Of a stretch of DNA of 64,000 nucleotides, positions 5,838 through 41,702 are shown piece by piece (position 1 is the stretch's first letter; every line of letters begins with the position of its first letter). A model generated the notes under the pieces. That model did not search any database, was not told where the DNA came from, and saw only the letters and a list, made by a program, of their open reading frames with translations. The position numbers and the translations under genes are program-made. Origin of the DNA: Marsupella aquatica (lineage: Eukaryota; Plantae; Marchantiophyta); NCBI GenBank assembly GCA_973895155.1, contig OZ316894.1, positions 8,208,234 through 8,272,233 of the forward strand, written 5' to 3'.

Positions 5838-6835
5838 AACCATGGTTCATGCTGCAAGCTCTAAATCTAGATGAAATCAAAGATGACTAGGGATAGTGCA
5901 AACAAAGGTTCATGGAATAATATTTAGCTTTGAATCTAAATGAATTGAATCAAAGACTACTCGGACAGTGCAAACCAAGGTTCGTGCAAGATAGCTAGCT
6001 GTGACTGATATTTATTCTTTGTACTGCAAACCATGGTTTGCTCTGCAAATGGTTACAGGGAATGAACTTCAGGACAAATCAATGGGGACACTGCAAACCA
6101 AGATTCGTGCAATGAGGGCTTGTGATACTTATTCTCAGTAGTGCAAACCATGGTTTGCACTGCAAATGATATGACTTTCACGTTAAATGAATGGCAACAC
6201 TAACAATCAAAATGAACATGAAGTAATAAGGCTCGGATATCAATAGGTCCCTTTGTGCAACAAGGTCTAGAAAAATTGACTAGGAAGATAAACTTCAGAG
6301 CAAACCATGGTTCATGCCCTTGAAAGCAAAATTGAGCTTCATTAAGATTAGAAATTGGACTGGGTGGACATGCATGATGTGCAAATCCTTGTTTGTGCTG
6401 CAAGTACAAATGTAAATCCATTTGCTAGAAAATTGTTGGCTGGAAGGACAGCCAAGTCCAGATGTGAGTTGTGATAGTGGGAGTCACATATTACCCCTTC
6501 ACAGCACGAACCATGGTTTGTGCCACGATAGGTACAAGGCACCAGGTTTGGAAAATGTAATGCCTCAAAGGAAGGTGAGTTGAGGTCAGAGTGGTGGAAT
6601 TAGACTTAACATAAAGATGTGCAAACCATGGTTTGTGCTATATGAAATCATGGAAATCTATTTCAGAGACAGGGCCGACTGGGAGGATAATCGAGGTCAC
6701 TTGCTTCGCAGCACAAGCCATGGTTCATGCAGCAATTGATAAATGTATTGCCTCAAAGGAAGGCTAGCTCAGTTGACCACAGAGAGGCCAAGGGGACACG
6801 ATGTGAGAGACAGTTGAATTGCACATCATGGTTTG
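5838..6835. repeat. Cluster of palindromic AACCATGGTT (extended GCAAACCATGGTTTGC) motifs upstream of gene A
   Basis: Exact copies at 5838, 6029, 6146, 6303, 6509 and 6624 plus several near-matches; a perfect 22-bp palindrome AGTGCAAACCATGGTTTGCACT at 6140-6161. Confidence 0.9.
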
Positions 6836-9800
6836 AGCTGGAGGGATAAAATGCAATCCATTTCATAAAGTGGGATTGCTCGAATGATAGCTGACTTAGG
6901 AGTGGAGTGATTTTATTGGGACTCCACAACATGGAACGGATTCAGGAAATGCACTGGCCGTAACGACTTAGCTGCTGGCCTCAGGGATGATTTCTTTGAT
7001 AAGGTGTACAGTCCGTAACAGCTTACTTGAAGGATTCATGGATTGAGTTAGGATTGTGGGAAGAAGGGGATATTACAATCCTCCATAAACTTTTAGTTGT
7101 GACCTCCAAGTTTAGACTTTGGTTATTGTTAATGAACATAAAATGACCTTTAGGAATAGTCAAGCACAATAGGACAAATCTTGCTATGGCAATCTTCAGC
7201 ACACTCTGGACTACAGAGATTGAGGGCAGGTTACCTATGATCAAGTGCACTTCAAGTTAGCTCAGCAACCCTGCTCAGACCAGCTCAAGCCTCAACAACT
7301 CCGCGCTGATGGGGATTAGAAAAAGGGATATATGCCACGTTTAGGCCAGTTATTGAGATGAGAAGGGGTAGCTCGATCCACCTTCCTAGACTGCCAAACA
7401 CATCCAAGATCACACTTCATCATGTGCTCACAAAGCCAATATCAAAGGGTATATATTCAAACAGATATGCCATAACAAGAAGTTTCCAATTAACAAAGGC
7501 TCCAAAACAACGATAGAGACTTAAGGATGTCCAACAGTATAATCATGTAGCAGCACTTACCACTGAGAATAGTCCTGGCCTTCACACAGCATGTGAGAAT
7601 AGTCCTGGCCTTCCACGCCTTTACGCAGCATACTGCACCACACAAAGGAACAAAACCAAAAGTTGAGCATTAAAACTCTTACCAATCACAACGAGTTACA
7701 AGAACATGACTCAATACTGAGAGGCATGATCAACAAATGAGTCAATCCGCCCAAATAGCAAGGGCGGAGGTGACAAAGGAACACTAATTTAAAGAACAAC
7801 CACTTCTGAAGGGAAAAAAAGACAATCTGATCAAAAGCATGTGAGATTTGTAGAACCAAATGAAAACATACAACCAAAATTTAGTCTTCCTACCGCGTGC
7901 TTGGAAACTCTATTGTTGAGTGTTGCTCTAAGCTACTATCTTCCACATGGCTGCCAACAGTAAGCAACAACAGTTTGCTGCATTAATTGTTTGAATGGGT
8001 CTGTTTGCACAGCCAAGCATACACTCTGACAAGCATATTATCGACATGTAGCATCATAATGAAACTAAGGCACTTGATTCTTGTACACTGAACTGAGTAG
8101 ACAGCCGGGTAGACTGCAGACTGTGAGAGTGTGAATGTTAAATTAGACCAAGACGTGCAAGTTGGACAAATGAGTTCATGTTGTGACATAGGTAGTCGTC
8201 CCCCCGACCTCTCTACTCTACTCTACTCTACTCAATCACATATATGCCAATATATACATTATCGACCCTTACTGACTGAGATCAATTCCTAGATCTTAGA
8301 AGGCCCAGAATCTGGCCCAAAATATTTGATCTAGTCATTTTTAATTTACCTCAAACTAAGCCCTCGATATATCAGACTAAATATTCAGCTTCTTGCCATG
8401 ATCGATTGATTAGTTATGAATTAGCAGCAAATTTTTAGATTAATTTCTTAAACTCTACGTACGTCCATATACTAGTCTGAGTTGTCTTTGCACAGAAACC
8501 AAGCCTTGTGCTAAGAATGCTTGCAATTGATACTCATCCATACACAGTCCCAACAAAGATACCTCTCCTTGAGTGACTCGATCTACGGACTCTTTAGCAT
8601 TATTGACAGGGCTGACTTCTGGCACGTAGAGGCTAATTATATGCAGTTGCCCAATAATAGTTTAGTGCATACCCAAATCTGACCTGTGCTTTTACTGTCA
8701 ACGGCTACGCCTGTTGCTCACTCTATTGTGTTGAAGTCAAAGTTGTCTTGGACCTACATGTCCAGGCAACAAACTTTAGTATCACAAGGCCACCACTAAA
8801 GAAGATAAACAGTGAATATAATTTTCAACAAGCTAAAACAATGAACTGAAACTTTGGCAAACCCACCACAGTATTTAATTGCATGCAGCAGAAAACGATG
8901 AGATGCACATAAAAAACTTTACAAATTATATTCATGTACGTCTACAAGACAATTTATCAATGCCATTGCTCTTGGTTAGAACACATGTCGGAAGCAAAGT
9001 GATGAATCAATATGTAGAGTACATTATAGTTTCATAATTTGTGTTGTCTGACGTAAAACTAGGAGAGCAATATTCCTCTTCCAATCAAAGTGGTAAGAAT
9101 ATTAAAATAGACAGGGAAGTACCTTCCTAACAATCACATAACCTTGGTAATGAAAACCAGATCTACCTTCTGTTGTTGGTGAAGTACGTTGTTGGTGAAG
9201 TAGTAGTTTAACTCTGAATAGCATCCCTGGGAGGATCTCAGCACTAAATTACATATTTGACATGCAGCGCTCCTGTCCAATGGAAGTACAAATGACATCA
9301 GAAGAATAAAGAAGATGTGTCCATCTACACACAAGACAAATGTACTACTATTTTAATTTTATGCTGTGTAGCTATCCTTCTGATTACAGAATTGTTTTAA
9401 AATTTGGCACTTGTTAGATAATCTCACGCATGGATCTAGATTCTAGTTTTTGTCAGGCTGACATCGACATTGAGAATTAAATTCTAATCTATTGCAAGCT
9501 TTGTCAAACTTTCTAAGTTTGAATAACACTGTATGGTCAATTCGTCTTATCCTTGTTCCAATCAGATTGCTAAGAACGTTAAAAATAGATAGGGAACTAC
9601 TGTACCAGGCTTCCAACGATCACATAACCTTCAGAATAAAACCGAGATCTATACCTGTTGGGAGAAACTAGCTCTCTGGGAGAGGCGCAACAATAAAATA
9701 CATCGCCGACATGCAGCGCTCCTGTCCAACGGAAGCAGGCATAGTGTTAGGAGAATAGAAAAAATGTAGCTGTCATGCAGAGCTCCAATGAAAGCACGTA

Positions 9801-10815: not shown

Positions 10816-13800
10816 GCCCTACCTTGCAGGCACTCACACAGCAGTGCGCACAAGAAATCCACTCAATGTGAACTTTTCACCCAAAACATGAGCGGGAGAC
10901 ATGCACTGAAAAATGGGACATTAATTCAAGTTAGAGGAAATGGAGGGAACCCTTGCCATCAAATTTGGCTTGGCCATAAGGAAAAGCGGAGGATGGCTGG
11001 CCATAGCTTTTGCACAAACTTAATTATTCAAAAGGTTTATTTTTTATTTTTCAGTAACCTCTTCATTCACTTATGATCAAGACATATATCCAATTGTTAT
11101 GGCAAAAAGTGATAAATTATGACTTCGGTAGTTCATAACTTGTTCTGCCCATAAACTGTCCACCCGCCTGTCCATAACTTGTGATGTCTGTATGTAAGCA
11201 ACTTTGAGACACATTATTTGAAACTTTGAGATGCCTTATTGGTTTACATGGTTCAAGGCCATATTGGTTAGTGTCACTACTGAAAAATATGACATTGGAA
11301 AGTGTGCCATTGGTTAGTGCCAACCTCCCTCAAAGTCTTGAGTTGGCACAAGTTGTTCAGATGGTCGGCACTAGACATTGATCGAAGATAATGGAGCCAA
11401 CTGTTACGTGGAAGTTCCCATTGATATAACCGTGCATCCTCTTACACAAAACAGTAGTCCAACTTACTGACACTAGAAGAAACCGGCCCGTTTTGAGACC
11501 TGGAGATGTGTGACTTGTCCAAGACCTTCATGAAATAGCGACTCCAAGGTTGTTGGTGTCATGTTAGTCACACCTTCTTGACTGAGTTTTGGTGAAGTTT
11601 TGCCAAGTCATGTTTACAACTTTTAGGTAAGTTGCAACTATAACTTAGTTAAGGCAATTAGGGTGAAGTTATACAAGTGACTCTACATTAGAGTACAACT
11701 TATGAGACTACTACATTTGAACCCTTAAACCTTAAAGTATGGGATCCGCGACCATATACATATGATTTTGGATACACCATATGTCATTCCACATCAATTT
11801 AATAATAGTTTAGTCATACCATTCTAAACCATAATTACTTGATCTTAGATAGCATTAGTTTTCTTTTAGGCTCATCATTTGTGCTCTTAATTAATGAGCA
11901 TGCAACAAGGCTATTTTAAGGTTAATCCTAGCCTTGTGCGTTCATTTAATCTTTGCTCATATTGTGTTGTGTCAAATTTTCTTTAGGGTTTACAGCTCAT
12001 GTCAACGCAAAGTGGTCGAGTGTCACTGGGTTCAGTTCTCTCACTAAGTGTTAAGGTATGCATTGTGCGTTGCCTTTGGATACGAGTTTAGGGTGCGCGG
12101 GTTTTTCAACAGGAAACACACCAGCAGAGTGCAAATGGGAGTTGAAGGTGCGCGGGAACTCGGAGGTTTTTGTCAAGGAAAAACTTGGATGTCCATTGTG
12201 CTTACCAACAACCATCGTTTAGGGCGAGGAGCTTTACGGACTTCCGCTTGTCGTGCTTGAGTGTACATCTGCCCTCTATACTTTTGGGAGCTTTGGACTA
12301 GAGCAGATGATCGGAAGCCTTGGACGAGAGACACAGACTCCAATATCCAGCTCGTAGATCAATCCGTGATTGATTTTGTCAGGTGTGCGACCTTCAAGCT
12401 CTTCTCCATTGTGCGCTTCCAGTTGAATGCTGCAAGGTCTGAATACTATCGGGAGCTCGCATTTGGGCCAAGGTTTAGGTATTTTGTCATTGGAGGACTG
12501 AGCTGTGGGTTTAGGCCGACTTACTATGAGCTTATGTTGTTGCAGCTGTGACCAATAACTGAGGAGCTGCGACCAGGAGCTTATTTTGTTGCAGCACTAC
12601 CATGGACAAGGGGTTGTGGAGGATCGGGGAGCTGCGACGTAGAACTGAGGAGCTGTGAAAAAGTGGGGAGTGATCTTGAAGGCCAACTATCTAGCGTGAG
12701 GTGGATCATCGTGGTTGCAACAGCGATCGGGCCCTTTTTTGCATTGGCATTGTCAGTAAGACAATCTGTGGACGCGCGAAAGAGTCGCAAGGAGTTGTTC
12801 TTGTGGGCAGAGATTGGAGTTCACATTTGGTAAGTCCACCTCAATAATGACATACATTATAGGTGGAGGCAATGTTATGGCCTCTTGTTGTCTTTAAACT
12901 CATTCTCCACTCACAAGAGAATGAGGATTGATTGTGTCCTGAGAAGCTTAACAATTTATGTTGTTGACATCGTCCACATTGAGTGACAGTGAGCTCAAGT
13001 CAGTGAGTGACCGATCGAAGGGGACATTTGTGCTCTTCATTACATGCTTGGGCAAGAGTGATTGATGTACTAATCGCAAGCGCTCCCAAGTATCCATTTG
13101 TCGTTAAGGCTTGAAGCTTCACCGGGAGCTGCGACCGTCAGTGGGGAGGAGTTGGAGGTTGTGTTGCGCTCGTACACAACCTCCAAGGTACAAGGCAGGA
13201 GTTGTGCAATTTAAGGTGAGAGTCAATAGCTTTTGGGATTCACCATCTTTCATCGTTGTCATCGCTGCTCTCGTCTATCGCTACGGCCGATTGCTGCTCT
13301 GCGTTTTTGCTATGGGTTGCCAGTCTGCCAGATGCTGAGTGAGACAGAGGCTACAACCTGGGTGCGCAGAGGTCCTCACTAATCCCATGGTTTACAGTTT
13401 GCAAAATGTGACAGCCCCAGTGCACAGTGAGGTATAGGGTGTGTGAGGTATAGGGTGTTCTTACTCGTGCTACAGTCGCTTTGACTTGCTGAGTTCCAGC
13501 AAATTGAGTTTTAGGTGCGGTCAATGAGAGTTGAGCTGTTTGAGCTGCGGTCACTGAGAGTTTAGAGTTTGAGCTGCGGTCACTGAATGCTGGCATTGAG
13601 GTGCACGCCCTTCACATTGATCAGTGAAGGCTACGGCCGGGGTGATTATGATAGTGATTCCAATGCAAACCGTCCAGGTAAGATTTATGTGACATTGTGT
13701 ACAATGAAAGTGGCCCTGCTTATTGACTGCTTAATGTTTGTGTTGCAACTGGCAGCAGATGCATGGAGTGCAGCGAAGGGAGGCGCTATTCATGTGAGCT

Positions 13801-15261
13801 GACAGGGGAGCTGGACTTGTGAGCCGTGGTTGCAGCTACGTCTTGGAGCTACGACCTATGAGTTATGGCTAGAGCTACGACTTGACCTGAAGGTGACGCA
13901 TGAAGAGTAATTTTGCAATCCATGAATGTTTGTACTCAATGTTATAGATGCATAGGGTGGGTGTTGCATTTTGTTACTGTAAAATGTCCGTGATGTCGTG
14001 AGATGTTTTGTTCCTTGGATTGAGACAATTCTTAGATCTCTGCATCAGCGATTATTGTATGTCATGTCTCACCTCAGATCATGAACGTGATTGGTTGGAG
14101 ACTATATTAATTGGGGAGGAGCTCCAATCCGTTGTCATTGCTTCTCAGTGGAGTGTTGTTTTAGTAAGCTACAGGGGGCAACAGAGCGCAAGTTGCTGCT
14201 TGCAAGTTCACGCCTGCTACCTACGACTTCCGCCTGAAAGGTATGACATTCACATATGTGCATTTCTGGTCTCCAGTTGATCAATGTACTTATTCCCGCT
14301 GCCTTGAAATGGACCTCAAATTTCCATGCTCCAATACGGTACTGTGATCGAAGCCTATCACGATGCAAAAACAGAGGAGAGGCAGAATCAGAGCCCGGAC
14401 ACCAACGTGTACAGATATCACAAAGCTAAAATAGAGGAGAGGAAGAATCAGTGCTCGGCTCGGACACCAAAGTGTACAGACATCATGAAGCTAACTACAA
14501 GCTAGCAGATAGGTCAAATGCTCCCAAATCGAGTCAGAGGAAAGTTACTAAGACTACCTTCACAACTCTCAAGTCTGGAAAGTAAAAATCAGCCTGAGAC
14601 ACGTAGCAAGAACTGTTGTCTGCTTTCTTGGGGATCGTCATGTGTATGTAATTGCATACACATTCTACCTGAGGGGAGTATGATTGTACACCTCAGGTAG
14701 AACCGAGTACTATCTATCGCATGATATAATTCCTCTACAATTTTGTATTAATGTTGCCTAAGTGCTTTGTTGTATTGTTTTGGTTGTAATGACGTCACTT
14801 GCATTTCATAGTCAGTCTTAGTTGGTTGGCTTGGTACTCATTTGCTTTTCACTCCCTCTGGCTAGTGAATTTGTCTATTGTTGCTGAGCCTTAACATTTG
14901 TGTTTCTGTGGGGCTGAGCAGAGTTTGTTCCGTCTAGAAGCTGCTGTACTGAAGTGATCAGCCTCCGGCTTGGAGGTGAATCTTCAATTTTTTGTGGATC
15001 CGAGTGACTTCTGTGCAGCTGAGTTTTGCTTTGTCGGGACGATTGTGTTTGGCTAAGATGCTAGATTGTGGCTTGTCTTCTTGCTTCCAGCTTGTGTATT
15101 TTCAATTAATAGAAGTTGGGAACGAAGTGATAATTGAATTTCCTTATATTAAGCATCTTCACCTAGAAACTCAATACATAAACTCCAGGATTCCCTCGGG
15201 ACATAAAATGAGCCAAATTGTCTCAAAATTGGGAACCTGCACCCGCACTACTCAAACAATT

Positions 15262-15594
15262 GTGTTGGGCTTGGTGGCCTTGTAAGTCTTCTTTAGCTTT
15301 CGCAATGGAGGTTGAATCTTGCAGTACGTCAAGGGGAACTTGATCTTTGAATCATGGAACTGCTTGGTACTTTCTCGCTTGCACAGAGAGACAGGGACTG
15401 TCGTAGTCTTCATGATCTGGATGCAAGGGAACCGAACTCTATGACAAGAAGCCATCTCATCATACATCTGCTCTGCAGCTCCGTTTCTTGTGGTATCACA
15501 ATATTCCTTGTACATGTTGTGATAACCTGTACGACTCTGATACGTGGACCCAGATACCGAAGTTCTTAATTGTGGTGGGCTTCTTTTCGAAGAT
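15262..15594 (-). pseudogene. RPL18A: Captured 3' exon of 60S ribosomal protein L18a (eL20), frameshifted
   Basis: [16 protein letters not shown] / [46 protein letters not shown]...[17 protein letters not shown]...YKATKPN; preceded by a CAG splice acceptor. Confidence 0.93.
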
Positions 15595-16602
15595 CTGGTA
15601 GACACATTATTCAGCATTTGCTAACTTCGAAACTAGAAGGGTAACACATTAAACAACAGAGAAACTCACAACATCCTCCTTTGGTCCTTCAGAGTCTGTA
15701 CTTTGATTCTGAAGTTTGACTGAGTTTTTGTTTACTAAAAGAATGTGACTGTGTAAGAGTTCCGTTTGGCAGTGGATTGGTTGAAGCACTTCATGCTAGT
15801 GTGTTGTCCACAGCTCTTCAACCAGCTTTCGTCTTCCTTGTCTTTCACCACTTACGATGACATCAATTCAGCTAAGACCATAGAAGGTTCCAAAGCATCT
15901 AACTTGTAAAATCGCATTCTGTTACATCAAGGACTAAGGTGTTGGGTGCCAAAGGAGACAGCACAACAAACACGCTGAAAAGACTTCAGGACTGGGTTCA
16001 ACAAGGTAGTGAAGGTGCTTAGAGCCATAGTAAGTATGCATTCTGTATCTTTCTCTATTGATGTGAGCTTGTGCATAATGGGAGTTGTAGTTGGCAAGAG
16101 TTCCAAATATGAATAGATCCAGAAGTATGTGATCATGTACTTGCTCTATAAAGTTCTGAAGATATAAGCATTTTCTGTTAGACCAGGCAACTTGGGAGTT
16201 GGTAAGTGTCACCTGCATCTGAGGGGCTACACCGGGGCATCAGTGGAGGTTCACTTGCACAACACGACAACCAGTGAATTTTCTCTCTGCTGCAACCTGC
16301 AAGGTGAGACTTTCGGTCTTTCTGGATGAAAAAACAGGAGTTTAATATGATTGATATACATGTCCGTCGAGAATATGGGTTTATCACCAAGCTCTTTGTC
16401 TTAGGAAACTCATAAACTCAGAATCAAATATGTACTATGCACGTTTCATGCTATGTGTATACTATGACCTGTAGTTGGAACCAAGACAATGAGTGGGAAC
16501 TGATTAGTTTAGGTGGTTGCTGTTGGCGAGGCAAGTCGACCTCCTGCTCACCTTGCTCATCAAAGGACGTGAACAGAGGACATCACAACGAAAGCAACAC
16601 TT

Positions 16603-17052
16603 ATGGTGAGGACCCGCAACGCTGAACATGTGCGACTTGCACGCAAGGCAGAGATGTTGCGCCTTGAGTATGTCAGACTTGGGATCCTTCCAGCCCAGTC
16701 TGCATGGTACTTTGAGTACCCTGTTGTTTCCAGGAACAACTACAGCCGGCCTCTACCTGCTTCAGTACCCTTCCCGACATCCTTGGTATTTGTGTCTCTT
16801 GTACATGACCCGCCACAAATTAGGTGCCAAGGGTGTGTACACAGTTGCCAATATGACTGTCCTGCCTGTAGGGCTTCTGGCCCAGAATTGGATGACCGTT
16901 CTCTTGGATGCCGATTTTTGCACAGAGCACAATGTATCATCTGGAACCACTCGCCATCCTGCAGTGTGCCTGGTGATGTCACTTGTCCTGCCCTCCCAGA
17001 CCCCACCACCGGTGACTTTGGTGTCTACACATGTTTGGATCACATGCTCTAG
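16603..17052 (+). CDS. Small Cys/His-rich protein, possible PHD/zinc-finger-like CACTA cargo
   Basis: 149 aa, ATG to stop; CxxC..CxxC..GCRFLHRAQC..C..C..CLDH pattern; same strand as the other cargo ORFs. Confidence 0.4.
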   Translation: MVRTRNAEHVRLARKAEMLRLEYVRLGILPAQSAWYFEYPVVSRNNYSRPLPASVPFPTSLVFVSLVHDPPQIRCQGCVHSCQYDCPACRASGPELDDRSLGCRFLHRAQCIIWNHSPSCSVPGDVTCPALPDPTTGDFGVYTCLDHML

Positions 17053-17750
17053 AGGACCACTTGTCACACCGCATGCACAGTCCAGATACCATTGACCTAT
17101 AGCTTAACACTCTGACTTCAACACAGAGGATATTTACTTAAAATTTTGATGTATGAGCAATTTTGGGTCCAGGGTTTAGAGTCAACAGTACATAACTTAT
17201 ATCCTATTATGCCTGCACTAAGCAAAATATCCTAATTTAAGAGGCTAGCAAACTCGCATAAAAGTCTCTATTGAAAGACTGCTTTCATGACTGCTTTAAC
17301 CTGGTGAACATTGCAACGTTGACTGAATTAATGGGCCATGTGATAATATGCAAAATGATTTATGCCTCACTTATTTGTCTCAGCCACTATCATAACCTAT
17401 TTAGGATGTATAAATTTCAACCCTTATGACACTGCTTCATACCAATCCTCTTCGAAGAATGCCTGTTTTACATGTCACGACTATTGTATGTGATTCAAAT
17501 GCATGAAATGTTGTTGCAGATCTCCTTTGGTGAATCATAGCCACAATTAAAATTGAGGTGTTGGTGGAGAAATTGTATTAGGGGATCAGTTTTGTGTGTG
17601 GGCTCAACATACCAAAAGTATATGTGCTCTGCATCCTTGTGTGGCCATTCCAATTCATTGCAGTAGCAAATGCCTTTGTACCTTAAATGCTAAATATATT
17701 TTACTTTCTGTGCAGTCTGCTAAATTGTAGAGTCTATCTCATGCGCAGGC

Positions 17751-18431
17751 ATGGCACGGCCTAAAATTCAAGCCAAAAAGCGTGTGATAGAGGTGAGAAA
17801 CACAGGTGTACTTGGGGCAGATGCTACTAACTTCTCTGCAAGTCAGATTTTCCAGAAGGCAGCTCATTGTTGTGCCATTTGTGACGATGGTGGGGGCCTG
17901 GTCATTTGTGAGGGCCCTTGCATGAGGCATTTCCACCTCAACCCGGAGTCTGACCTTGCTGCAGAAAACAACTGTCCAGGGGTGGGCCTCCCGTCAACAC
18001 ACCAGGGAGACTGGATGTGCACTGATTGTTTGGAGAAGCAGGCTAAGTGTGCACAGTGTGGGAAGTTGGGGTCCTATGAGGGCTCTGTTGATGCTGCAGC
18101 AAATGTTAGGAAATGTCCAGACCGTTTTTGTGTGAGATTTTTCTGTTTTGAGTGTTTGCCTGCTCATGCCACAGCTTGCCCACTTCATAGGTGCAAGGCA
18201 TGTGGTGAGCATGATGATGACTATTGGACTGACATAGTCCACTGTGCTAGGTGTCCCACTATGTGGCACTATCATTGCCTGAAAGATCATCAAGCAGAGG
18301 GTTATGCTTGTGACAGAGAAATCTATGATCACTCTGCACATGGTGTTGATCGATGGATATTTTATTGTCATCGCCATGCCATTGATCCTACCTCGCGCAC
18401 TCCTGTGAGAGATCACATATCTTGGCTGTGA
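17751..18431 (+). CDS. Stand-alone EDM2-type composite (triple) PHD finger protein
   Basis: CAICDDGGGLVICEGPCMRHFH...CAQCGKLGS...CPLHRCKAC...CARCPTMWHYHCL...IFYCHRHAIDPTSRTPVRDHI matches the recalled EDM2 pattern CAICDNGG..CEG.C.R.FH / CPLHKC / CRRCP.SYH.KCL / IYC..H.ID....TPVRDH. Intact single ORF after a splice acceptor. Confidence 0.85.
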   Translation: MARPKIQAKKRVIEVRNTGVLGADATNFSASQIFQKAAHCCAICDDGGGLVICEGPCMRHFHLNPESDLAAENNCPGVGLPSTHQGDWMCTDCLEKQAKCAQCGKLGSYEGSVDAAANVRKCPDRFCVRFFCFECLPAHATACPLHRCKACGEHDDDYWTDIVHCARCPTMWHYHCLKDHQAEGYACDREIYDHSAHGVDRWIFYCHRHAIDPTSRTPVRDHISWL

Positions 18432-19023
18432 AGCTGAACATTGTACATGCACAGTGCACCTGATGTGGATGTACTATTTTTTGAGATTGCAGAGATTCCA
18501 ATTTTGAAAAGGAGTTGGGTAGGCGAGTTTATATAGGCAGCACTTATCTTGTGCTCTGGCGTCAGTGGCTGGGTACATGCCTATACAAACTTATCCTTAC
18601 AAGCCTTCTTGGAAGTATTTAGGCTGAGTGGTCATTTTCATAAACACTTTCATCAGACTGCTAAATTAAAACAGGACTTCTAAGTTGTAAGCGTTTAAAT
18701 TATCAGGCATGCAATTAATCAAATTGCCCTATAAGTTTGTCATTGAATGTATCCTCCTTTACAACAAAATATGTATGTGCCATGACAAGTTGGTTGCACT
18801 TCATTTCACCACGGATATGGATTTTGTAGTATATATTCAAACAATGTCCTGCATCCGTGCAGGTGCCTAGTACGTATTGTTCACATATCCCTTGTACCTA
18901 TCAAAATCGGACCTGAGCACCAGTGGGCCAGATCAACTCAAAAAGCAGGAATTTTGTTGTCCTTGTATTGTCAGGTGAACCCATTCTTCCAAAATTCACT
19001 GTCATCATGTAGAGTGTGTGTAC

Positions 19024-19902
19024 ATGGAGCCTGGTAAACGTAGAAAGTGTGACCACCCAGCAGTGTTTACAGGGGTCAGAGCAATTTTGGTCCATGGCCA
19101 GCATGGGTTGACCAAAGTGCATTGGCCAACTGTACAGAAACGATTCTCTGAGCTCCATGGCACTGTAGTTCAGGACATCACTCCAGAGACTACACATGTT
19201 GTTGCAGGGACATGGCTATCAGTGATAAAGAAGTGGTCATGGTCCTACATGAATTCTGCAATTACTAAGCAAGGCCTAAAAGTAGTTGAGGCCTCTTGGA
19301 TCACAGATTCCATAGCACATAAGATTGTACAGGATACTGAGCAATATGAGTTGTGGGAGGATGAAGAAGCTTCTGCATCAGCTTGGGCTGAACAAGAAGT
19401 CTGGGAAGCAAAGGCACGGCTTGCTGATCTCCAATATGGACCTGTACTCAACAAAGGACAGAGCTCTACAAGGCTGAAGTGTATGTTGGCTGAGGAGACG
19501 AAGCAACCAACCCCCATTCTGAAAGGGCTGAGCATGGTATTTGTGGAGGCGGGAATTGGAGAGGTTAAGTGCAAAGTGTACAAGTCCACAGTGCTTGACC
19601 TAGGTGGGACAGTGGAGGAGAATATAACAGAGGACACCACTCATGTCATTACTAAGTCATATCCCAAAGCCTGCCGCAAGTTTGGGAAGGGAGACATTCG
19701 CTTTTATGTCATGTCCCATAATGTGTTTGTGGTTTCATATGCTTGGCTTGTGGAATCAGTAGCAGCTGGGAAGCGTCAAAACCCAATGGACTATGATCTT
19801 TTTGAGGCTGGCCACGGAAGGGTCAGGATCCTTACAGAGAGGACTATGAGACAACAAGTGAGGAATGGGTCATTAGCGATTCTGAATCAGAGTGAGGAGT
19901 AG
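19024..19902 (+). CDS. Tandem BRCT-domain protein (both domains resemble the DNA polymerase lambda/X-family BRCT)
   Basis: Two repeats: GTVVQDITPETTHVV...VVEASWITDS...QYEL and GGTVEENITEDTTHVI...VVSYAWLVES...DYDL; BRCT hallmarks GG/THV/WxxxS; intact ORF. Confidence 0.8.
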   Translation: MEPGKRRKCDHPAVFTGVRAILVHGQHGLTKVHWPTVQKRFSELHGTVVQDITPETTHVVAGTWLSVIKKWSWSYMNSAITKQGLKVVEASWITDSIAHKIVQDTEQYELWEDEEASASAWAEQEVWEAKARLADLQYGPVLNKGQSSTRLKCMLAEETKQPTPILKGLSMVFVEAGIGEVKCKVYKSTVLDLGGTVEENITEDTTHVITKSYPKACRKFGKGDIRFYVMSHNVFVVSYAWLVESVAAGKRQNPMDYDLFEAGHGRVRILTERTMRQQVRNGSLAILNQSEE

Positions 19903-20328
19903 TAGCATCAGTTTGGACACAAGTTTTTTTGTATAAATCAGATCATTGAAATAAATGTGATCTTTGAACTAATGTACCTTGTTATGGTTGGTGGCAGTTG
20001 GGCTTATTTTACTGTTGGCGGATTGTTGTTTCCTGCTGCCTGGGGGTGTCACTGTAAACGTACATGCAGAGGCGGTACATTTGAGGACAGTGGAGGAGGT
20101 GGTGACACCCTCCAACATTTAGGAATTTTGTGTCATTCACTTGACAATAGGTACACTACTTGCGAACCTGTTTTTTTCTTTTGGGGTGGTTTAGGGTTTG
20201 TGAGAATTTAGTACACGTTATGTTAACTCTTTTGGCAGATACAATCAGGGATATATGGAACACAAATACCACCATTAGGCATCCTTGTTCACTGCTGTCC
20301 ATGACTGCAGAGCTCCCAGCCTGTTACA

Positions 20329-23300
20329 ATGCACCCTGGTCACCACCCTCCCCAGACCCAGCCCAGGGCACAGGCACTGCCTTTGCATCATCCCACAAGG
20401 ATATCACGCCATGATAATAAGCTTTGGCAGCGTGAAAGGTTACGAACCAGACTTTCAGGAGCCAGTAGGATGAGATGTCCTTGTGCAATCTGCCAAGGAT
20501 CCCGTACCAGGGGTCTGAATGAGGTTTGGCGGCATATCGCGGTTCATGGAAGAGATCCACGACATCGAGTTTGGAATGATCCTGCAGAGGAAGATTCTTC
20601 CGACGAGGAGTGGAGGTTAGAATTTGATGCTGCCAATGCTGCAAGACGGGCAAGTGAGGTTCTGCCTGGTGCATTTGAAAATGTTGTAGCTGGTCTCTGT
20701 GGGTTGTCAGCTCTCCAACGGGATGGTGCTCAGGCAGCACCACGTGACGAAGGAATTCATGTGGAAGAGATGGTGAGAGACATCTTCCAAGACTTGGATG
20801 CATTTCATGATGGCTGGACAATGAAGAGGATACGGCTGCAGATGCAAGTGTGCCCCCTGTCGAAGAGCCTCTTGATGAGTTTGAGATAGGGCAGGAAACC
20901 CCTGGGCATGATGGGATGTTTGGCTCTCCCCTGCAAATACAGGAAGGCAGGAAGTCTTTGTACCCCGGTAGCAAATGTTCTAAACTGGGATTTGTCATCA
21001 TGTTCCTGAACATTTGCGGCAACCACAATGTCCCCAACATTTTGGTTTCTGAGTTGTTGGCATTCTTGCGAACAACTGTGCTACCAGATGGTAATATTTT
21101 GCCCAAGAACATGTACGAGGCAAAAAGATGCATATCTAATCTTGGATTGAACTATGATTCGATCCATGCCTGTCCTGATGGGCATGTTCTTTTCAGAAAG
21201 GAGTATAAAGAATCGTTGACATGCCCTAAGTGTGGGAAGCACAGGTATCGGAACTCAGGAAAGTCTATGGTTCCCGCCAAGGTACTTCGTCATTTTCCAC
21301 TCATTCCCAGACTTCAGCGGATGTTCAGAAGCCGTGCCATCTCGGAGATGATGACTTGGGCAACTGACAAGAAAAGTGATGATGGGCTACAACGACATGC
21401 TGCAGATTCAAGGCAATGGAAACTCATAGATGAGATGTATCCCGAATTTGCTGTTGAGCCGAGGAATGTCAGACTTGGGCTGTCATTGGATGGGGTAAAC
21501 CCATTTGGAGACAAGAACAACAAATTTTCGTGCTGGCCTGTAACTATTTTGAATTATAACCTTCCTCCTTGGATGACTACAAAGCGATTTTTTGTTCTGA
21601 TGGTCCTACTGATACCAGGGCCAGACAGTGCTGTATCTGCCAACATAGATGTGTTTCTGGCTCCCCTAGTGGAGGAATTGAGAAAGCTTTGGGAGGAAGG
21701 AGTTCTCACATATGATGTCCTACAGAGGCTTGGGAGGTTAAACCCATTCATCCTTAGAGCCATTGTCATTCTGACTATAGCTGACTACCCAGCCCATGGG
21801 ATGATATCAGGCCAAACAACAAAAGGATATTGTGCTTGTACTATCTGTGGGCGCAATGTCACCAGTGAGTACTCCAGAGCCCTGCAGAAAGTGATATACA
21901 TGGGCCATCGTCGTTTTCTGAAGGCAGATCACCCTTACAGAGAAAGACAAGCACTGATTGCACACTTTGGCAATGAGATTGAGCAACGTGGACCCCCGGC
22001 ACGAGTGACCAAAGAGGAGATCAGGCAGTGGGGAGCACTGAGGGATGACTATATCAAACGAGGGGGCAGGGAAGATGGAGTGAGTGATCCAATAAAGCGA
22101 TATGGTGTAAAAAGACTGAGCATATTGGACTTGGAGCTCAAGTACTGGAGGGTAAGCCTCTTGGAGTTGATGCTAATTGGGATACATGTTTTGGTTCAGA
22201 GCATGTGCATTCATTTCGAAGAGAGAGACTAAACTTGAGGCATTTCCTGACGCTTTTGCATTGCACGATGCAGGAGTTTGAGCCAAGCAAACATAACATT
22301 GATGTTATGCACATTGAAAAGAATATTTGTGAGAGTCTACTCAGATTCTTGTGTGGAGAGAAAGACAATGGTTCAGTGAGATTGGATCTTGAACAGAGGG
22401 GAATGAAACCCCATCTTTGGTTGAGGCCACATGCCCACAGAGCTGATGTGCTCTTGAAGTACCAAGCGCCCTATGTTCTGACAGACACAAAGTGGGAACT
22501 ATTTGTGCAGAGGTTGAGTTCTTTGAAGGTTCCTTCAAACTATGGCAGTGCTTTCAAGAAGCATATCATGACTAGAAAGCTTGGTAGTATGAAAAGCCAT
22601 GACTACCATATGTTGATGCAACATGTGTTGCCTTTATGCCTGAGGGGCCTGTTGCAGAAGCCTGTTCGTACTGTGATCATGCGACTCAGTGATGTGTTTC
22701 GTCGTATTTGTGTGAAGGTTTGGGATGAAACACACTTCCCACAACTGACAGAAGATGTCGCTCAGGTGCTGTGTGACCTGGAGATTTATTTTCCTCCCGC
22801 ATTTTTTGATGTCATGACCCACCTACTTGTCCATGTTGTGGAATACCCTTTGGAACGGTACATGAAGCTACTCAAAGGTCACGTGAGAACATATTACAAA
22901 CCTGAAGCAAGCATGGCTAAAGGTTACATCAAGGATGAGACTCTGGGATTTCTGACCGAATACATAGCACAATATGAGCATGTGAAGACCAGGGTGTGGA
23001 ATTCTGATGAGGAGGAAGGGGTGATAGGTGAAGTACTGGAAGGGGCTGCAACCACAAAGAACCTGACCATATCTATGAGAGACTTGGCACATGACTTTGT
23101 ATTGCACAACACTGTGGTGATGGAACCCTGGATACAGTGAGTGCATACATGTGCTATAATCCAGTTCATGAGCTTAAATGTTGTGTTCGTGTGGTTTTCT
23201 CCTTCAGCCTGTTCATGTTTACCCAAGCTAATGCTGTGTGGTTGTTCGTTCAGGGAGTATGAGTCATTGAAGGCGGCCCATCCCACTGCAGGAACAACTT

Positions 23301-24019
23301 TTCCAGGTTTCATGGAGTGGATCAGAGTGGCAATTAGAGAGCATCACGAGACCCACCCAGACATGGATGCAGATGTTTACCTACTGTCTAATGCCCCTAG
23401 CCTGAAAGTGAAGACTTACAAACGGATGAGAGCATATGGGAATCACTTCCGAGTGAAGGATGGTGACAGTGCCTACAGGGTGACGAATGACTGCGGGCTC
23501 ATCACTGTATTTGAGCAACAGAGCCACAATCACGACAGGGCCTGGATGGAGATGGGATATGTGGGAGAATTAGTTGACATATGGGCTCTGGACTATGGGG
23601 CGGTGTCCAGTCCTGTGATTCTTATGAAAGGTTCATGGGTGCGGCAGGATTGGCTTGGTAACAGGGCTACCATGAAGAGAGACAACGACGGTTTCTTGCT
23701 GGCCAATTTCAGAGGGAAATTGCCCGAATGGTCTGAGCCATTTGTGTTTCCTAGTCAGGTGGAGCAAGCTTTCTTCCTGGATGTGGAAGACTCCCCAGGT
23801 TGGCGTGTAGTGTGTCATAAACAGGCCAGGCAACGTCGGATGGAAGGATCAAACCTTGAGTTTCATTTACACTCTCATAGTGCCTTTGATCGTCGGCGTT
23901 CAGACCAAGTGCCTGTAGTTCATGATAGCGGGGACTTCATTCCTGTGACAAGGGTAGATGCATTTGCTGAAGGAGGCAAATTCAGAGATGCAGATGCCAA
24001 CAGTGTGCCTGTGCCATGA
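20329..24019 (+). pseudogene. CACTA TnpD transposase (Transposase_21, DUF4218, DUF4216), defective
   Basis: RCPCAIC N-domain; IHACPDGH, EPRNVRLGLSLDGVNPF, YNLPPW, ADYPA, IDVMHIEKN, MKSHDYH, FFDVMTHL, EPFVFPSQVEQAFF. Introns ~22152-22273 and ~23138-23253. Frameshift ~20812 and loss of the GPVxxRWM segment before YPLERYM. Confidence 0.92.
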
Positions 24020-24175
24020 GTAATGTGAATTGTTTGCATGGACATTAGTGAGGGGAAGGATGTGTAATAAAGTAATTCTGAAGCAACACAGATGTATGGA
24101 TGGATGCCTGGTGATTGTGGTTGCATTGTGTTATACGGGGTGACCATAGATGACATGTTTTTGTGGTCCAGTAGG

Positions 24176-27100
24176 ATGGAACAGAGTGACACAGAGATGT
24201 GTGAGTATGAAAGGAAAGCTATGGAACAACGAGCATACGTGAAAGCCAAAATCGCAGAACTGGATCTGGAAAAGGATGTGGCTGAATTGTAAGGGAACGA
24301 TTCTCAACTACACCCCTCCGCTGAGTTTGTGTGACATGAATAGTTCAATGTGGCACTGAAATTGTGACTGTATTCTCATATTGGAATGTCGCAGAGCCAC
24401 AACATTTTCAAAGAAACAAAAGGAGTACGCAAGAAGGGTGACCAGCACTATCTCTGGGCCTGTGCATCGGAGTGACAGGTTGAGCAAGAAGGTCGTACCT
24501 ACAATGGCAGAATGTGGAGATGACATTGATGCTGCACAGGTGGGTGCAGACACTAGACAAGAAGATGCAGATGATGAGTATTTTCCAGAGGAAATGGATG
24601 AGGATGGGGGTTATGAAGATGAATACATTGCAGAGCAGCCCCAAAAGAAACATGTAAGTAGTTTTCCCAACAAGGTTTTGAGTTAAAAACTCTTGTTTAG
24701 AGGTTTCATATGTTCAGTACTACACATATGTACCTTGCTTAGTTCCTGACATTGTAGTTGGTGATGTGATGCAGCGTCCTACCAGTTCTGTTTTGCCTTC
24801 GAAGCCTGTGCATGCACCATACCAGCAGGGGGGGCTGACCTCTGATCAAGGTTGGCGAGGTGGTAGTAGTGGTAGATCCCAGGCTGGTGCCCAATACTAT
24901 GGCAGGGGGCAAGCTCTAGGTTATGCCCGTGGTAGAGGCAGAGCAGGTCCAAACCCACAATCTCGTGGGTATGGACGTCCACCTCAACCATGGGGATGTG
25001 AGTATATATCTATATGCCAGTTCTTTGTGAAGGCATGGCACTCCTGAATTTCAGACTGCATATCAATTTTTGACATTGTTTGGGATGTATTGGATTCAGA
25101 CAACATGAAATTCTGTCCACCTGCCATTGCATGCAGATTCTGCCCAACCTGATTGGGCAAATGCTAGTAATGATCAGTTCCAATGTCCACAAGGACAGAC
25201 ATGGGTTGAACCAGGTTGGGAGGATGGTGGTGGGTCGTGGAATGAACAAGGTTGGGAAGGTGGTGAAGGTAATTGGCAGGGATATCAAAATTCAGTACCT
25301 ACAAACGCTGGAAGAGGAGCAGGTAATGTCTGATCTTGTCAGCAATGGAAGAACTCATTATATGTGGAGTCCATTCACGTGGGGGGGACTCTGCACATGT
25401 ATAATGATAGAAAATGTATGTGTGCAGGTTGGACAATCGAACCATCGACTCAAGTATTCACTAATGCCCCTATGCAGATGCAGCACGGAAGGGGGACAAG
25501 TATGTCGGTGAATGTTCAGTTGTTTTCCTACAGTTTGTACTTAGTTTTCAGTACATATGTTTGCACACACATACCTAGAAAGTGACATCATCCGGCCCCT
25601 GTACTAGGCTGGACAGGTGGTCCAGGGTCGCAACAATTTCAGAGTGCAGTCCCTGCACAGGCATCTACAGGCAGAGCTACAGGTATGTATGTTTGAAGAA
25701 TTTTTCTTGAAGTGAAGCATTGAATGTTGCCGTCATCCATTCTGCTATATGTAGTTCTCAAGCATGAATGGCATTGTATTTTCCCAGGTGGCTTCAGAAC
25801 CCCAGGTAGGGTGAATGAAGGGGTGGCCAATACAACGCCCAGTACTACCGAGAGCAGTGCACGAGGGGAGGTGACAAAGAAAGGGAACGTAAAGTTGAAT
25901 GAGAGACAATGGGTGGATGCTGAGTGTCCTCGCAAGAACCGATGGCATGCTGATTTGAAAGCTGAAGTATTGCGTTGGTTAGATGTGAGTGTTATTAATT
26001 TTAAAAAACAGCATCCAAAAGATTGGAAGACTGTATGTGAAAATGTTGCTGCCAAATGGAATTATGTGGGCAGTGATGATGGCGTGGACATAGGTTGCCT
26101 AGAGAGTACAGCAGGTAAAATTATCAAGCAAGAGAGGTGGAGAATGCATAAGGCTTGGAAGGAAGGTGGGGAGAAGCCAGATATGCCTCCACCAGCCAGT
26201 TGTGATGATAAAGTGTGGGCAAGGTTAGTAGCTTATTTTGTAACAGATGCTTCAAAAAAGAAGAGTTCACAGATGACCGAGGCCAGGTTGAGTGTTCAGA
26301 ACCCTAATCTGACAGGAAGGACCGGCACTGCACCGACAGCTAAACGTTTGGTAAGAATGAATGGCCTAGCTATGTAATTTATGCTACACTATGTACTATT
26401 TTTTAGTGTAAACCCATACATGTAAACTTTGTTTTTTAGTGTACGTTCCCTGAATATTGATCGATAACTTGTGTTTGCCATGCATGTGCAGAAAGCCCAA
26501 TTGGGGCAAAGCCCTTCAAAAGAAGAGTTGAGGGCTGAAATTGTGAACACCCGGGCTCAAGAGGGTGCATCTGAATCCTCCAAGCATGTAAGTTATATGA
26601 GTTCTGATTGGTAATTGAATGACCTGCGTTGAATTTTAGGTGTACACTGTATATAACATTGATTGTGCATATATTGCCCAACATTTCATATGGAGTGATT
26701 GAACCTATACCCCTGTGTCATGTAGGGAGGTGGATCTTCACTTACAGAGATAAGTGGTCGTTTGAAGGCTGTCGAAACATGTCTTCCAGAGATCAATGAA
26801 CGTTTGAATTCATTGACTGACTTGTTCCATGTGAACTTCAAGACATTAATGGAAGCTGTTGTGTCGGTGAGAGATAAAATTGATTCCAATTCTGCAGGAG
26901 TTCCACCATCACCACTTGAGGTGGCAAAGTCAATGCACTCTTCTGGCATGCCAACGACATGTAGGCTTGAAGGTAAGGCCTTTACAACTGTGTGGGATAT
27001 GATTATTAAATGTATAGTTTGAATTGACATTGTTTGTTGAATGTGTTATTTTCAGTAACATATATTGTGGTTGTTGTGTCCATAGAGAATAAGACAGGTG

Positions 27101-27882
27101 CTACAGAGAAGAAGTATGAGAACCTGGCAAATACTCGCTGTAATTTAGAGGCAACAAAGTTGCAGTCTGTACAAGAAACTTGTTTGACAGAGGGCAGTCA
27201 ACCATGTTTGGATGAGGATGACATTGGCAAGGGAGTGGATGATATCAATGTTGGGGCAAATGAGGATATCAGCAAGCATGACAATGATACCATTGAGCCA
27301 GATTCATGCTATGTAGATCTTGACTCCATTGCAGAGATAAATGATTTGCAGAATGTATCATTCTCAATGACAGGTGTGCCTCTTGTTGAGATAAATCCAA
27401 CCAAAGAGTTAGTTGGTATGACACTCCCAGGTGATGAACCTGCTACTGTGACAGTCCTAACAGAGGAACCTACTGAGCCTAGCTTCACTACTGTGAAGAG
27501 AGGAAGCATGCGCACACGAAGCAAGTCTGCTGGTGGGAGCAGAGCCACGTCAAAGGTTTCATACAAACCTCCAAGAACAGTGCTGGCAGAAAGATCTAAG
27601 GTGGAAGTGGGGAAAGCACCTAATGCTGAGGGACGAAGTGGCTTGTTAGCTGTTGATGAGAGTGGAACACGAGTAGTATTTGCCAGAGTGCAGGTTGGTT
27701 CCACAACGTTCCATGGCAAGAGGATTCCCCCAAGTTATTCAGTAGTGTTAGTCACATTACTAGTGAAACCTAAAGCTGTCCTTCCCATTCCAAACACAAA
27801 TGATGATCCTCCTCAAAAGACACTTGGAGATGCTGCAGGTTCTTTGGTATTATGGCCAAGCAAGTTCATAGAGGATCCATAA
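24176..27882 (+). CDS. CACTA ORF2 / TnpA-like multi-exon gene
   Basis: Multiple GT-AG exons; Transposase_24-like segment (VWARLVAYF...KKSSQMTEAR...LTGRTG) and C-terminal Tnp1/En/Spm-type domain (FHGKRIPPSYSVV...LPIP...TLGDAAGSLVLWP); exon boundaries approximate. Confidence 0.7.
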
Positions 27883-29279
27883 CAATGTCATGCCATTATT
27901 TGTTTGTAGTGTGAGTCATGTTATGTAGATTTTAGATGTCAAGAAGCAGTACAAGAATCATGTCCTCTTGGAGATTCATAGTATCATGCATGTGCTTTTA
28001 GTTATCTCATCCTACAGTCATCAATTATGAGTTCCTGTTTTGTCTAAATTACATTGATCACATTGTAAACTATTCCATTGGAATTCAAATGATCTTCATT
28101 TTTTAGCAAGATTGTGATTGTGTTTAATTCTTATGAATGTTTTATGTAGGATCTGCTTATATGATGCTTTGTTTCATGTGGATGTCATTCATGCTATGTT
28201 CATTTCTTGTATTCAATGTGTTATATTTCTAAAGTTAGAACATCAAGTTTCTATGTATTGTAATGTCGAGTGCTCTCTCTCCTTATGAACTGTCCCTCTG
28301 TGTTCATTAGTCATGGTTATAACTTGCATGTGAACCTTATTAGTTATAAACATGAGTATATAGAGTCCCAAATGGTTCTGTTGTGTGACGCGGGCCAGGG
28401 TCTCCATTGGTCTCTCCTGTGACACTAAATAGTCACACGCTAGTCGTTGTTGAATGCGGGTAAGTCATGTATGTGACTTACGATGTGACTCGCTGAAGTC
28501 TATATTGCAGTCACGTCGAAACAAGGCTAGACTCCACAATAAAGTCACAGATCAGTCACAAATGGGTATCAAGCAAGTTGCAAAGCCCAGTATCAATAGT
28601 GACTTCCATTTTTTGGTCTCAACTTTTGCAACTCCAAGGGTCACAGCGTGGGTCAAGTCACGTTGAGTCACAATGAAGTCACATGAGCCAAAATGAGTCA
28701 TATATTGCGGTCTCAGTTCACCTCGGATTCTTCTAGTGTGATCCCCAACATTTGGTCATAAACAATGGGTCACATTTGGGGAAAGGGTATATTAATTATA
28801 TTTGGCGCAAATTAATGTACACCATGAGATTAAATAACTTAAACCATGGCACAATTGAGTTCTTTAGGTATAGAACTAAATTGTAATGTCCTTATGCTAC
28901 TTATCATCAAATCCTTTTGACTTACTTACCACAGTCACATGAATGACTCTCCAATGAGTCAGGAGTAACATATCTTTTCATTACCTGAAAAACTCTTAGT
29001 TAACCGTGAACATAGTGGTTCAATGGGCAAAGGCAAGGGAGGGCCAAGAGGGGGTACCTCACTACATACAATAGTGTCATGTGCCAAAGAAAGCAAAAAA
29101 TAAATAGAGTTAGAGTGAAAAGACGCAAACATGACGTTTTTACTTGAAAAGTAGAAAAATGTGATTTTATAAAAGAATGAACAGTAAGCAGATAAGAGGG
29201 CAATGACTAAACTATTTTTTAAGTTGAAAAGGAGGAAAGAATCTTTAAAAAGTGATAGTAAATAAATATACACACTTTT

Positions 29280-40900: not shown

Positions 40901-41702
40901 GTCGTGGACGGATGATAATAGTCCAAAACTTCCCGTAGGAGAACCAAAAAGATTACCAATGATAGAAATGGCCATGGTAGAGGAGGTGCGACAAGGACTA
41001 CATAAGCAAGTGAAATTTTTTAATTTTGTCTGCAATCGAACTACTTCAGAAGAAGGAAAGGGTAGATGGGTGGCACTGATACAATACTGGAATCAAATTA
41101 TCCATACTTTGGAGACAGAGGCGGTGCAATATAGATCTGGAGAGGAACACTTGGTTCATGGATTTTGGCCCATGTCAAAATGGAGAGATAGTGTTCCTTT
41201 GCAATACCGCAATGTGGCATGTGAGTTGGATGCAAAGATTGGGTATGTGGGACCAAGGAAAGACAAACCTCGTGAAACTTTTAACCCAAGGGTAGATATC
41301 ATGAAAGATAATTATATCTTGGTTCGGCCAGACACAGCTGACCTAGATATTTACCCAATTTATTTGGGCAAAGTGATTAGTAATGTGGAAGAAGGAGAGT
41401 TGAATGCCAACAATCAACTTGAACATGTGTGTATTGTGGAGTGGTATAGACCTTACATGCTAAGAAAACGTGGTCAGCCAGAATATGAGCCACGACAGCG
41501 GTGGTTAGATTGTTGGAATCAACAATGGGAACGTGATCCAGGGTATTCCACTGAGACAATAAGTGTGAACACTGTACTATGGTGTTTCAAGGGACGGACC
41601 ACAGCCAAAAGTGGCTTAGTTAGAATAGCAAAAAGTCATGCAATGAAAGCAAGAGACAATTTGAATAGATGCTTAGAGGATGAGGCAGCATCAACTTCAT
41701 GA
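37925..41702 (+). pseudogene. Transposase A: DUF7869/Sola-like RNase H-fold DDD/E transposase with N-terminal TnpA-like domains, CxxC motifs and a C-terminal BAH/Tudor-like region; one frameshift
   Basis: KCCLRQC, FSKCTTCSEL, IIHDKMD, LQLDNCAGDNKN, FLMVGHTHEDVDAMF; phase-consistent intron 39856-40404; +1 frameshift ~38933; superfamily label from memory. Confidence 0.75.

Follow-up and report, generated by a model that had tools for sequence, protein, structure and literature searches.

Plant transposon counter-measures to silencing by H3K9me2 are known from few systems (VANC, TnpA). For TnpA it is reported that Arabidopsis Spm elements are activated while H3K9me stays on them (bioRxiv 10.64898/2026.08.24.746577), and accessory proteins of transposons are described as modulating integration or silencing (PMC13547354). 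On the side of the host, EDM2 is reported to bind H3K9me2 chromatin and to suppress proximal polyadenylation (PMC7529245), the latter as part of the AAE complex (PMC9292364; PMC10241880), and normally to promote full-length transcripts across heterochromatin (PMC9292364). In edm2 mutants the DNA transposon Mu1 is described as de-repressed and COPIA4 as repressed (PMC3632883). In a literature search, with most subscription papers, Repbase and supplements outside its scope, no paper turned up that describes an accessory gene of the EDM2 or BRCT type in CACTA; a Chlamydomonas preprint mentions PHD among the domains of transposons, in a legend only. An EDM2-type PHD accessory gene of CACTA is apparently undescribed so far. 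The window, which is the whole stretch of 64,000 nucleotides from Marsupella aquatica that was analysed, holds a CACTA element with a predicted gene of this kind (Table 1), and very probably it is a selected accessory gene of the transposon.

Table 1. Features of the CACTA element and its predicted genes, in positions of the window.
Feature	Position	Strand	Basis or remark
CACTA/EnSpm element	11471..28738	+	17,268 bp (~17.3 kb); TIR, TSD, empty-site joint (X1, X2), transposase domains
Target-site duplication TGA, left	11468..11470		
Left TIR and subterminal repeats	11471..11900		
Captured RPL18a (eL20) 3' fragment	15252..15617	-	Frameshift near 15546 in this copy
Predicted stand-alone EDM2-type PHD gene, 226 aa	17751..18431	+	ORF, Pfam, homologues, BLASTP, tree, ligand columns
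Basic N-terminal leader MARPKIQAKK, H3-tail-like	17751..17780	+	5/9 identical in register; significance uncertain
Predicted PHD module, counterpart of EDM2_ARATH 225-432	17871..18425	+	25/26 host Cys/His columns are Cys or His
Tandem-BRCT protein, likely second cargo gene	19024..19902	+	Pfam, relatives, run contigs; overlooked in the original prediction
TnpD-type transposase (Transpos_assoc, Transposase_21, DUF4218, DUF4216)	20329..24019	+	Pfam; frame broken in this copy at 20811 and by the 39-base gap at 22843
TnpA-like gene exon (Transposase_24, under curated cut-off)	25724..26377	+	Pfam
Right subterminal repeats and TIR	28300..28738		
Target-site duplication TGA, right	28739..28741		Also the 3 letters in common at the empty-site joint

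The PHD ORF is intact as originally predicted, with 226 codons in the standard code and no interruption, and it ends as described, with TPVRDH at residues 217–222, four more residues and the stop. It had also been called intronless. The frame is indeed open in the genome, but two AG acceptor-like sites lie closely upstream of the ATG, and therefore the gene may have an intron at its 5' end or an N-terminal extension that is added by splicing. The claim that the ORF consists of the composite PHD region only had to be given up, since residues 1–40 are a basic leader with no match in EDM2. Residues 41–225 were aligned by BLASTP with residues 225–432 of Arabidopsis EDM2 (EDM2_ARATH, P0160), with 64 of 211 positions identical (30%, E 2e-27) and the TPVRDH motif included. 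The stop of the ORF corresponds to residue ~433 of the 1297 in EDM2, and the C-terminal ELP/methyltransferase-like domain is absent; the RFD domain (PF12047), which Pfam finds in EDM2_ARATH, gave no match in the ORF. The ORF has the EDM2 trait of an atypical PHD repeat ending in TPxRDH, and without the RFD and the C-terminal domain it falls short of being a full member of the family.

Pfam gave three NSD-type PHD models, all under the curated cut-off, and the PDB sequence search gave solely the PHDs of AIRE, NSD2 and TRIM33. A fold model made from 6 sequences had a pLDDT of 45; a second model, with a pLDDT of 69.9, showed weak matches to PZP and NSD tandem PHDs (best E 5.6e-4). The NSD-like rows align solely up to position 169 of the 217 in the profile, which disfavours an NSD origin, and because of this short cover the module is taken as EDM2-type, in line with the family origin first proposed.

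The module is not an unchanged copy of the host one. Ligand columns were defined on 17 host rows, by a share of Cys or His of at least 85%, which gave 26 columns; 24 of them are unchanged in the ORF, one has changed from His to Cys and one is lost. The His-to-Cys swap is present in all 13 of the 13 family rows, and a segment of 19 EDM2 residues is deleted in the ORF. Among the 12 residues before the first Cys, 0–2 are acidic in 21 family rows as compared to 2–7 (median 6) in 17 host rows, of which the Calypogeia-type rows have merely 2–3. In PHDs like that of AIRE, acidic residues at the corresponding position make contact with the tail of H3. Since this acidic patch is lost, the same histone specificity as that of EDM2 cannot be assumed, and the reading of H3K9me2 may have been lost. 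Against a plain label of EDM2 reader count the lost patch, the deletion, the swapped ligand and a best host match that is Calypogeia-type.

The element borders proposed from the target-site duplication were confirmed. The element starts with CACTAGAAGAA at 11471 and its inverse copy ends at 28738, with 11 of 11 and 14 of 15 positions identical and TGA flanking each end; this is the sole CACT[AG] pair in the window with a 3-bp duplication plus at least 9 matching end bases. Contigs of the runs X1 and X2 run from 11467 straight into 28739 with 3 letters in common, and the X1 contig has 3 differences to the element flanks in ~730 bases. This joint and the near-identical flanks fix the borders exactly and make a recent insertion likely. 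The contigs without the element may come from another allele, or from a flank that is itself repeated. The subterminal repeat AGTCA[CT] was found 11.6 and 29.6 times per kb at the two ends as compared to 1.2 per kb inside, an enrichment of 10–25 fold for a motif that had itself been picked from an earlier result of the same analysis. Like a CACTA/EnSpm element should, it has CACT(A/G) TIRs, a 3-bp duplication, subterminal repeats, a TnpD-type transposase and a TnpA-like gene (PF02992, E 8.5e-71; PF13960, E 2.6e-18; PF13963, PF13952 and PF03004 under the curated cut-off).

Compared to the run contigs, the transposase of this copy has single-base differences at positions 20811 and 22264, plus a gap of 39 bases at 22843. 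The element is thus probably non-autonomous in this copy, and the single-base cases could be assembly errors. The captured RPL18a piece spans only about residues 70–176 of eL20. In the original prediction its broken frame had been set against the intact PHD ORF. The frameshift near 15546 is present here and in X1, but the extra base is absent from the X2 and X5 contigs, and the BRCT and transposase frames are broken here as well, so that the contrast is weaker than first claimed. An Rfam search of the element gave no match, and the 30 of 70 stop-free frames between 11471 and 17750 that were searched against Pfam gave nothing better than E 0.028. Positions 16443–17095, where the contigs of both X1 and X2 are the deepest of the whole element, hold two overlapping ORFs on the + strand (149 and 155 aa), one of them Cys-rich and starting with MVRTR, with no Pfam match; this is possibly a further repeat or accessory gene.

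Outside the element, the window holds two DUF7869 transposase-like genes (39075–41702 and 55775–56383, +), probably of other DNA transposons, and a fragment of a Copia-type gag-pol (42167–43711, -). An open frame of 1124 aa (48664–52038, -) lies in a GC-rich stretch; much of it is coiled-coil-like, and Pfam assigns it to no family with confidence. There is also a direct duplication at 32769–34898, with a spacing of about 1.26 kb and 89–98% identity, and AACCATGGTT-like repeat arrays at 5891–6863 and 39949–40195 are similar to the subterminal repeats of other DNA transposons.

Downstream of the PHD gene lies an ORF with two BRCT domains, which has full-length relatives at 61% and 54% identity. 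One base is missing at 19807 as compared to all four runs, so that the reading frame is lost here over the final ~27 codons, and the shifted frame past this position agrees with the acidic tail of the relatives. It is likely that this ORF is a second accessory gene. A search for its donor gave generic BRCT matches only; it may resemble the BRCT of plant DNA polymerase lambda. In near-identical copies the PHD ORF co-occurs with the transposase and the BRCT gene, and in X9 the only bins along the element with high cover are those of the PHD, BRCT, transposase and TnpA genes. The 93 contigs of X5 that align on a stretch of 1 kb fall in four identity bands. Single X1 contigs over 18485–24075 reach a depth of 1554–1782, as compared to 109–133 for the empty site and for 12685–14026; the runs were found using this stretch as query, and contig depth is a hint rather than a copy number. 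These depths suggest that the 3' 13–14 kb, in which the genes for PHD, BRCT and transposase lie, recurs as one unit, and that the 5' 3 kb belongs to one subfamily only. The contig depth of 11471–14640 in X1 is about ten-fold below that of the 3' part, and suggests a 5' end that is subfamily-specific or recombined.

A HMMER search through 1.84 billion representative proteins gave 249 matches, in which short PHD-only relatives rank above every long EDM2. Among ten of the long matches that were checked, two carry the name ENHANCED DOWNY MILDEW 2-like, and another falls in a cluster with EDM2_ARATH. The window ORF has 23 short PHD-only relatives, 8 of them full-length, at 37–82% identity; the homologues with matching ends are 82, 75, 53, 37 and 38% identical and 217–245 aa long. 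With the window ORF included, 9 of the 24 sequences extend from the leader to the end motif, 3 lack the start and 12 are truncated or lose homology midway, the partial members having been assigned by eye in the alignment. It is from this decay alone that a transposon linkage is inferred for the relatives at 37–55%. A shared-word search for longer homologues gave none among 341 candidates, while the HMMER search did find longer ones. Metagenome scans for family loci with flanks gave no usable stretch among 75, and in another scan 1 of 48, where a 19-residue match on a marine scaffold was dismissed as chance.

The phylogeny against host EDM2 places the PHD-only rows in one clade with a support of 100/100, both as 13 of 50 rows and as 9 of 30 rows in a second tree, minus 20 rows, after long-branch rows were removed. 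A first FastTree had omitted 24 low-coverage rows, many of them family members, and the trees were redone. In the free tree the clade lies on a long branch outside the streptophyte EDM2-type proteins, but a placement inside is not rejected either (p-AU 0.40). An origin as sister of angiosperm EDM2 was rejected (p-AU 0.008); the other sister placements were not rejected, with 0.35 (liverwort paralogue), 0.31 (Mesotaenium), 0.21 (moss), 0.17 (Marchantia) and 0.056 (lycophyte). When the family profile was compared with 20 host proteins, a Calypogeia fissa protein came on top with 146 bits, as compared to 106 bits for Arabidopsis EDM2, and the closest host match is thus a short EDM2 paralogue of the liverwort type. 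The Calypogeia protein likewise stops right after TPVRDH, which implies that the neat C-terminal end of the PHD ORF may have been inherited and not cut. We infer a capture long ago from a bryophyte-grade EDM2-like paralogue, and an origin outside the seed plants.

Eight liverwort- or moss-type EDM2-like paralogues (P0016, P0021, P0022, P0031, P0032, P0023, P0027 and P0078) have a C-terminal PHD module and no ELP tail. Seven other EDM2-like proteins are PHD-only and separate from the family (P0036, P0048, P0099, P0149, P0042, P0045 and P0106, the last from the grass Eleusine), and three of them begin with MARxK. All seven branch with seed-plant EDM2, and stand-alone EDM2-like PHD forms have therefore arisen more than once.

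Selection on the PHD ORF shows at the zinc ligands. None of the 26, 35 and 75 differences between the window ORF and the relatives P0001-3 falls in the 26 ligand columns, and over 12 relatives this avoidance has a P from 0.017 to 2e-10. All 6 of the 6 indels listed for 17600–18600 fall outside the ORF (P 0.03–0.01 for 3–4 independent events). Diverged copies align over the ORF but not over its flanks. In X9, 38 of 39 contigs are less than 95% alike, mostly less than 90%, and the depth is hundreds to more than 12,000 over stretches of the ORF, below 6 in the upstream flank and 0 downstream. Loose contig ends, read by eye, retain C90, C93, H173 and C176 and show synonymous changes; one X9 end has an in-frame stop, and one X5 contig and one X9 contig jump over part of the ORF. 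For close copies the count covers 26 differences in the ORF, with 28 more on that stretch outside it; 17 of the 26 are non-synonymous, and this is not clearly below neutral (P=0.077 versus naive neutrality). The pattern fits selection on an active lineage plus drift in individual copies, and at the protein level purifying selection is supported. The ligands are conserved across relatives at 37–82% and the indels lie outside the ORF, unlike in a recent, neutrally decaying host fragment, and the element has a transposase of its own, though a broken one here, unlike a Pack-CACTA.

The idea that the ORF is neutral Pack-CACTA debris, a recent host fragment that is open by luck, is therefore largely refuted already and highly improbable. 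The element does take up host pieces, as the RPL18a fragment shows, and the close copies do not differ clearly less than under neutrality, but against debris stand a long stem branch, ligands and ends that are retained although the family has diverged to 37% identity, a clade-specific deletion and His-to-Cys swap, and indels that avoid the ORF. The original prediction had argued against debris too, and there it was right: many copies were found rather than this one only, and the 23 short relatives make one clade with zinc ligands kept beyond chance. Its word domesticated is better replaced by recruited by the transposon, not by the host, whereas the accessory gene of a transposon stands. A host role would be implied if the PHD-only family were host genes, selected for the host, of which one member was lately taken up by a CACTA lineage. 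For this speak annotated genes of grasses, a liverwort and a moss that encode PHD-only or PHD-terminal EDM2-like proteins. Against it, decay is apparent in half of the relatives, copies diverged to below 90% are abundant in X9 and X5 and co-vary there with the transposase cover, and an NCBI or UniRef gene record was absent for 11 of the 11 family proteins looked up, which makes such a host family very unlikely.

Our preferred reading, tentative and held at somewhat less than an even chance, is that the PHD gene makes a small chromatin-binding adaptor with anti-silencing function, which would help the element's own copies to be transcribed or mobilised inside silent chromatin. As the transposase of this copy is dead, the protein would be supplied in trans by active copies, and as the N-terminal RFD and the long C-terminal part of EDM2 are absent, leaving no catalytic part, it would work by binding alone. 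TnpA acts under H3K9me, EDM2 acts at H3K9me2 and loss of EDM2 de-represses Mu1, and it is for these reasons conceivable that an element-made EDM2 PHD could occupy or divert the H3K9me2 sites that EDM2 uses. Against the adaptor counts that a pure blocker of these sites could harm the element, since host EDM2 favours full-length transcripts through heterochromatin. It is also possible, but rather unlikely, that a nucleosome-binding PHD protein, perhaps with the BRCT protein, steers or completes the integration of the transpososome in particular chromatin. A role as guides of integration has been proposed for chromovirus chromodomains and for the MBD in CopiaMBD (PMC6673714), a BRCT gene of the DNA-repair type adjoins the PHD gene, and the remaining long ORFs in the window with a curated-level family are transposon proteins. 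Those guides are fused to integrase, however, whereas the PHD gene is separate from the transposase, and survival bias also predicts insertion among other transposons.

The leader raises a further alternative, that the free N-terminus imitates the H3 tail and absorbs or redirects H3K4/H3K9 writers or readers, or folds onto its own PHD as a switch. Compared to the H3 tail ARTKQTARK (PMC9677696), 5 of 9 positions in MARPKIQAKK are alike (composition-shuffle P 0.001), A1-R2-x-K4 is retained although the linker behind it diverges, and the acidic patch is gone. Leaders with at least 4 of the first 9 H3 residues in register were found in 9 of 21 family proteins as compared to 8 of 162 others, a count for which the best Met was chosen in the family only and in which the family rows share descent. 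But all 8 background matches are EDM2-type proteins themselves, Marchantia and Calypogeia included, which implies that the MAR start may be inherited, and one PHD-only subfamily of 8 rows has no such motif. Because of these points the H3 likeness is a lead only. A plain nuclear-localisation signal would account for the basic leader as well, and the fold model has no confidence for residues 1–13. We regard the histone mimic as unlikely. Just as doubtful is a combined scheme in which a CACTA lineage of non-seed plants carries a two-gene module, an EDM2-derived PHD with an H3-tail mimic in place of the acidic patch and a tandem-BRCT protein, that would divert the H3K4/H3K9 machinery and DNA repair to the element.

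The preferred reading, the anti-silencing adaptor, would matter since the EDM2 family is a host factor that lets transcription pass heterochromatin; a member kept by a transposon suggests that the arms race extends to histone readers, and it offers a small intron-free reagent for a direct test. Compared to EDM2 and EDM2-like proteins (the ASI1-AIPP1-EDM2 complex), the ORF shares the atypical PHD repeat up to TPxRDH and 25 of the 26 Cys/His columns, but it lacks the RFD, the ELP part, the acidic patch and 19 residues, has Cys for one His and a basic leader, and is transposon-borne and multicopy. The host gene pieces within the CACTA ends are as in Pack-CACTA, where the RPL18a fragment fits, while this family has transposase genes, and both its PHD and its BRCT gene combine deep divergence with conservation. 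The TET/JBP genes in fungal EnSpm and other DNA transposons are reported as a similar case of an additional epigenetic gene on EnSpm/CACTA (PMC12730594), but there it is an enzyme in fungi and here a predicted binding module in a plant. In CopiaMBD, the chromovirus chromodomains and the PHDs of retrotransposons, a captured epigenome reader is likewise described under purifying selection (PMC6673714). Those readers sit in retrotransposon polyproteins, in contrast to the ORF here, which is a stand-alone gene of a cut-and-paste element and comes from a named family of anti-silencing factors. With the KAONASHI/VANC Ulp1 genes of the VANDAL MULEs, too, a DNA transposon of plants took up a domain of its host long ago and has retained it, and the anti-silencing link is reported for them (PMC13317346). 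They belong to another superfamily and have another domain, and VANC binds DNA sequence-specifically, whereas the PHD ORF is a predicted chromatin binder.
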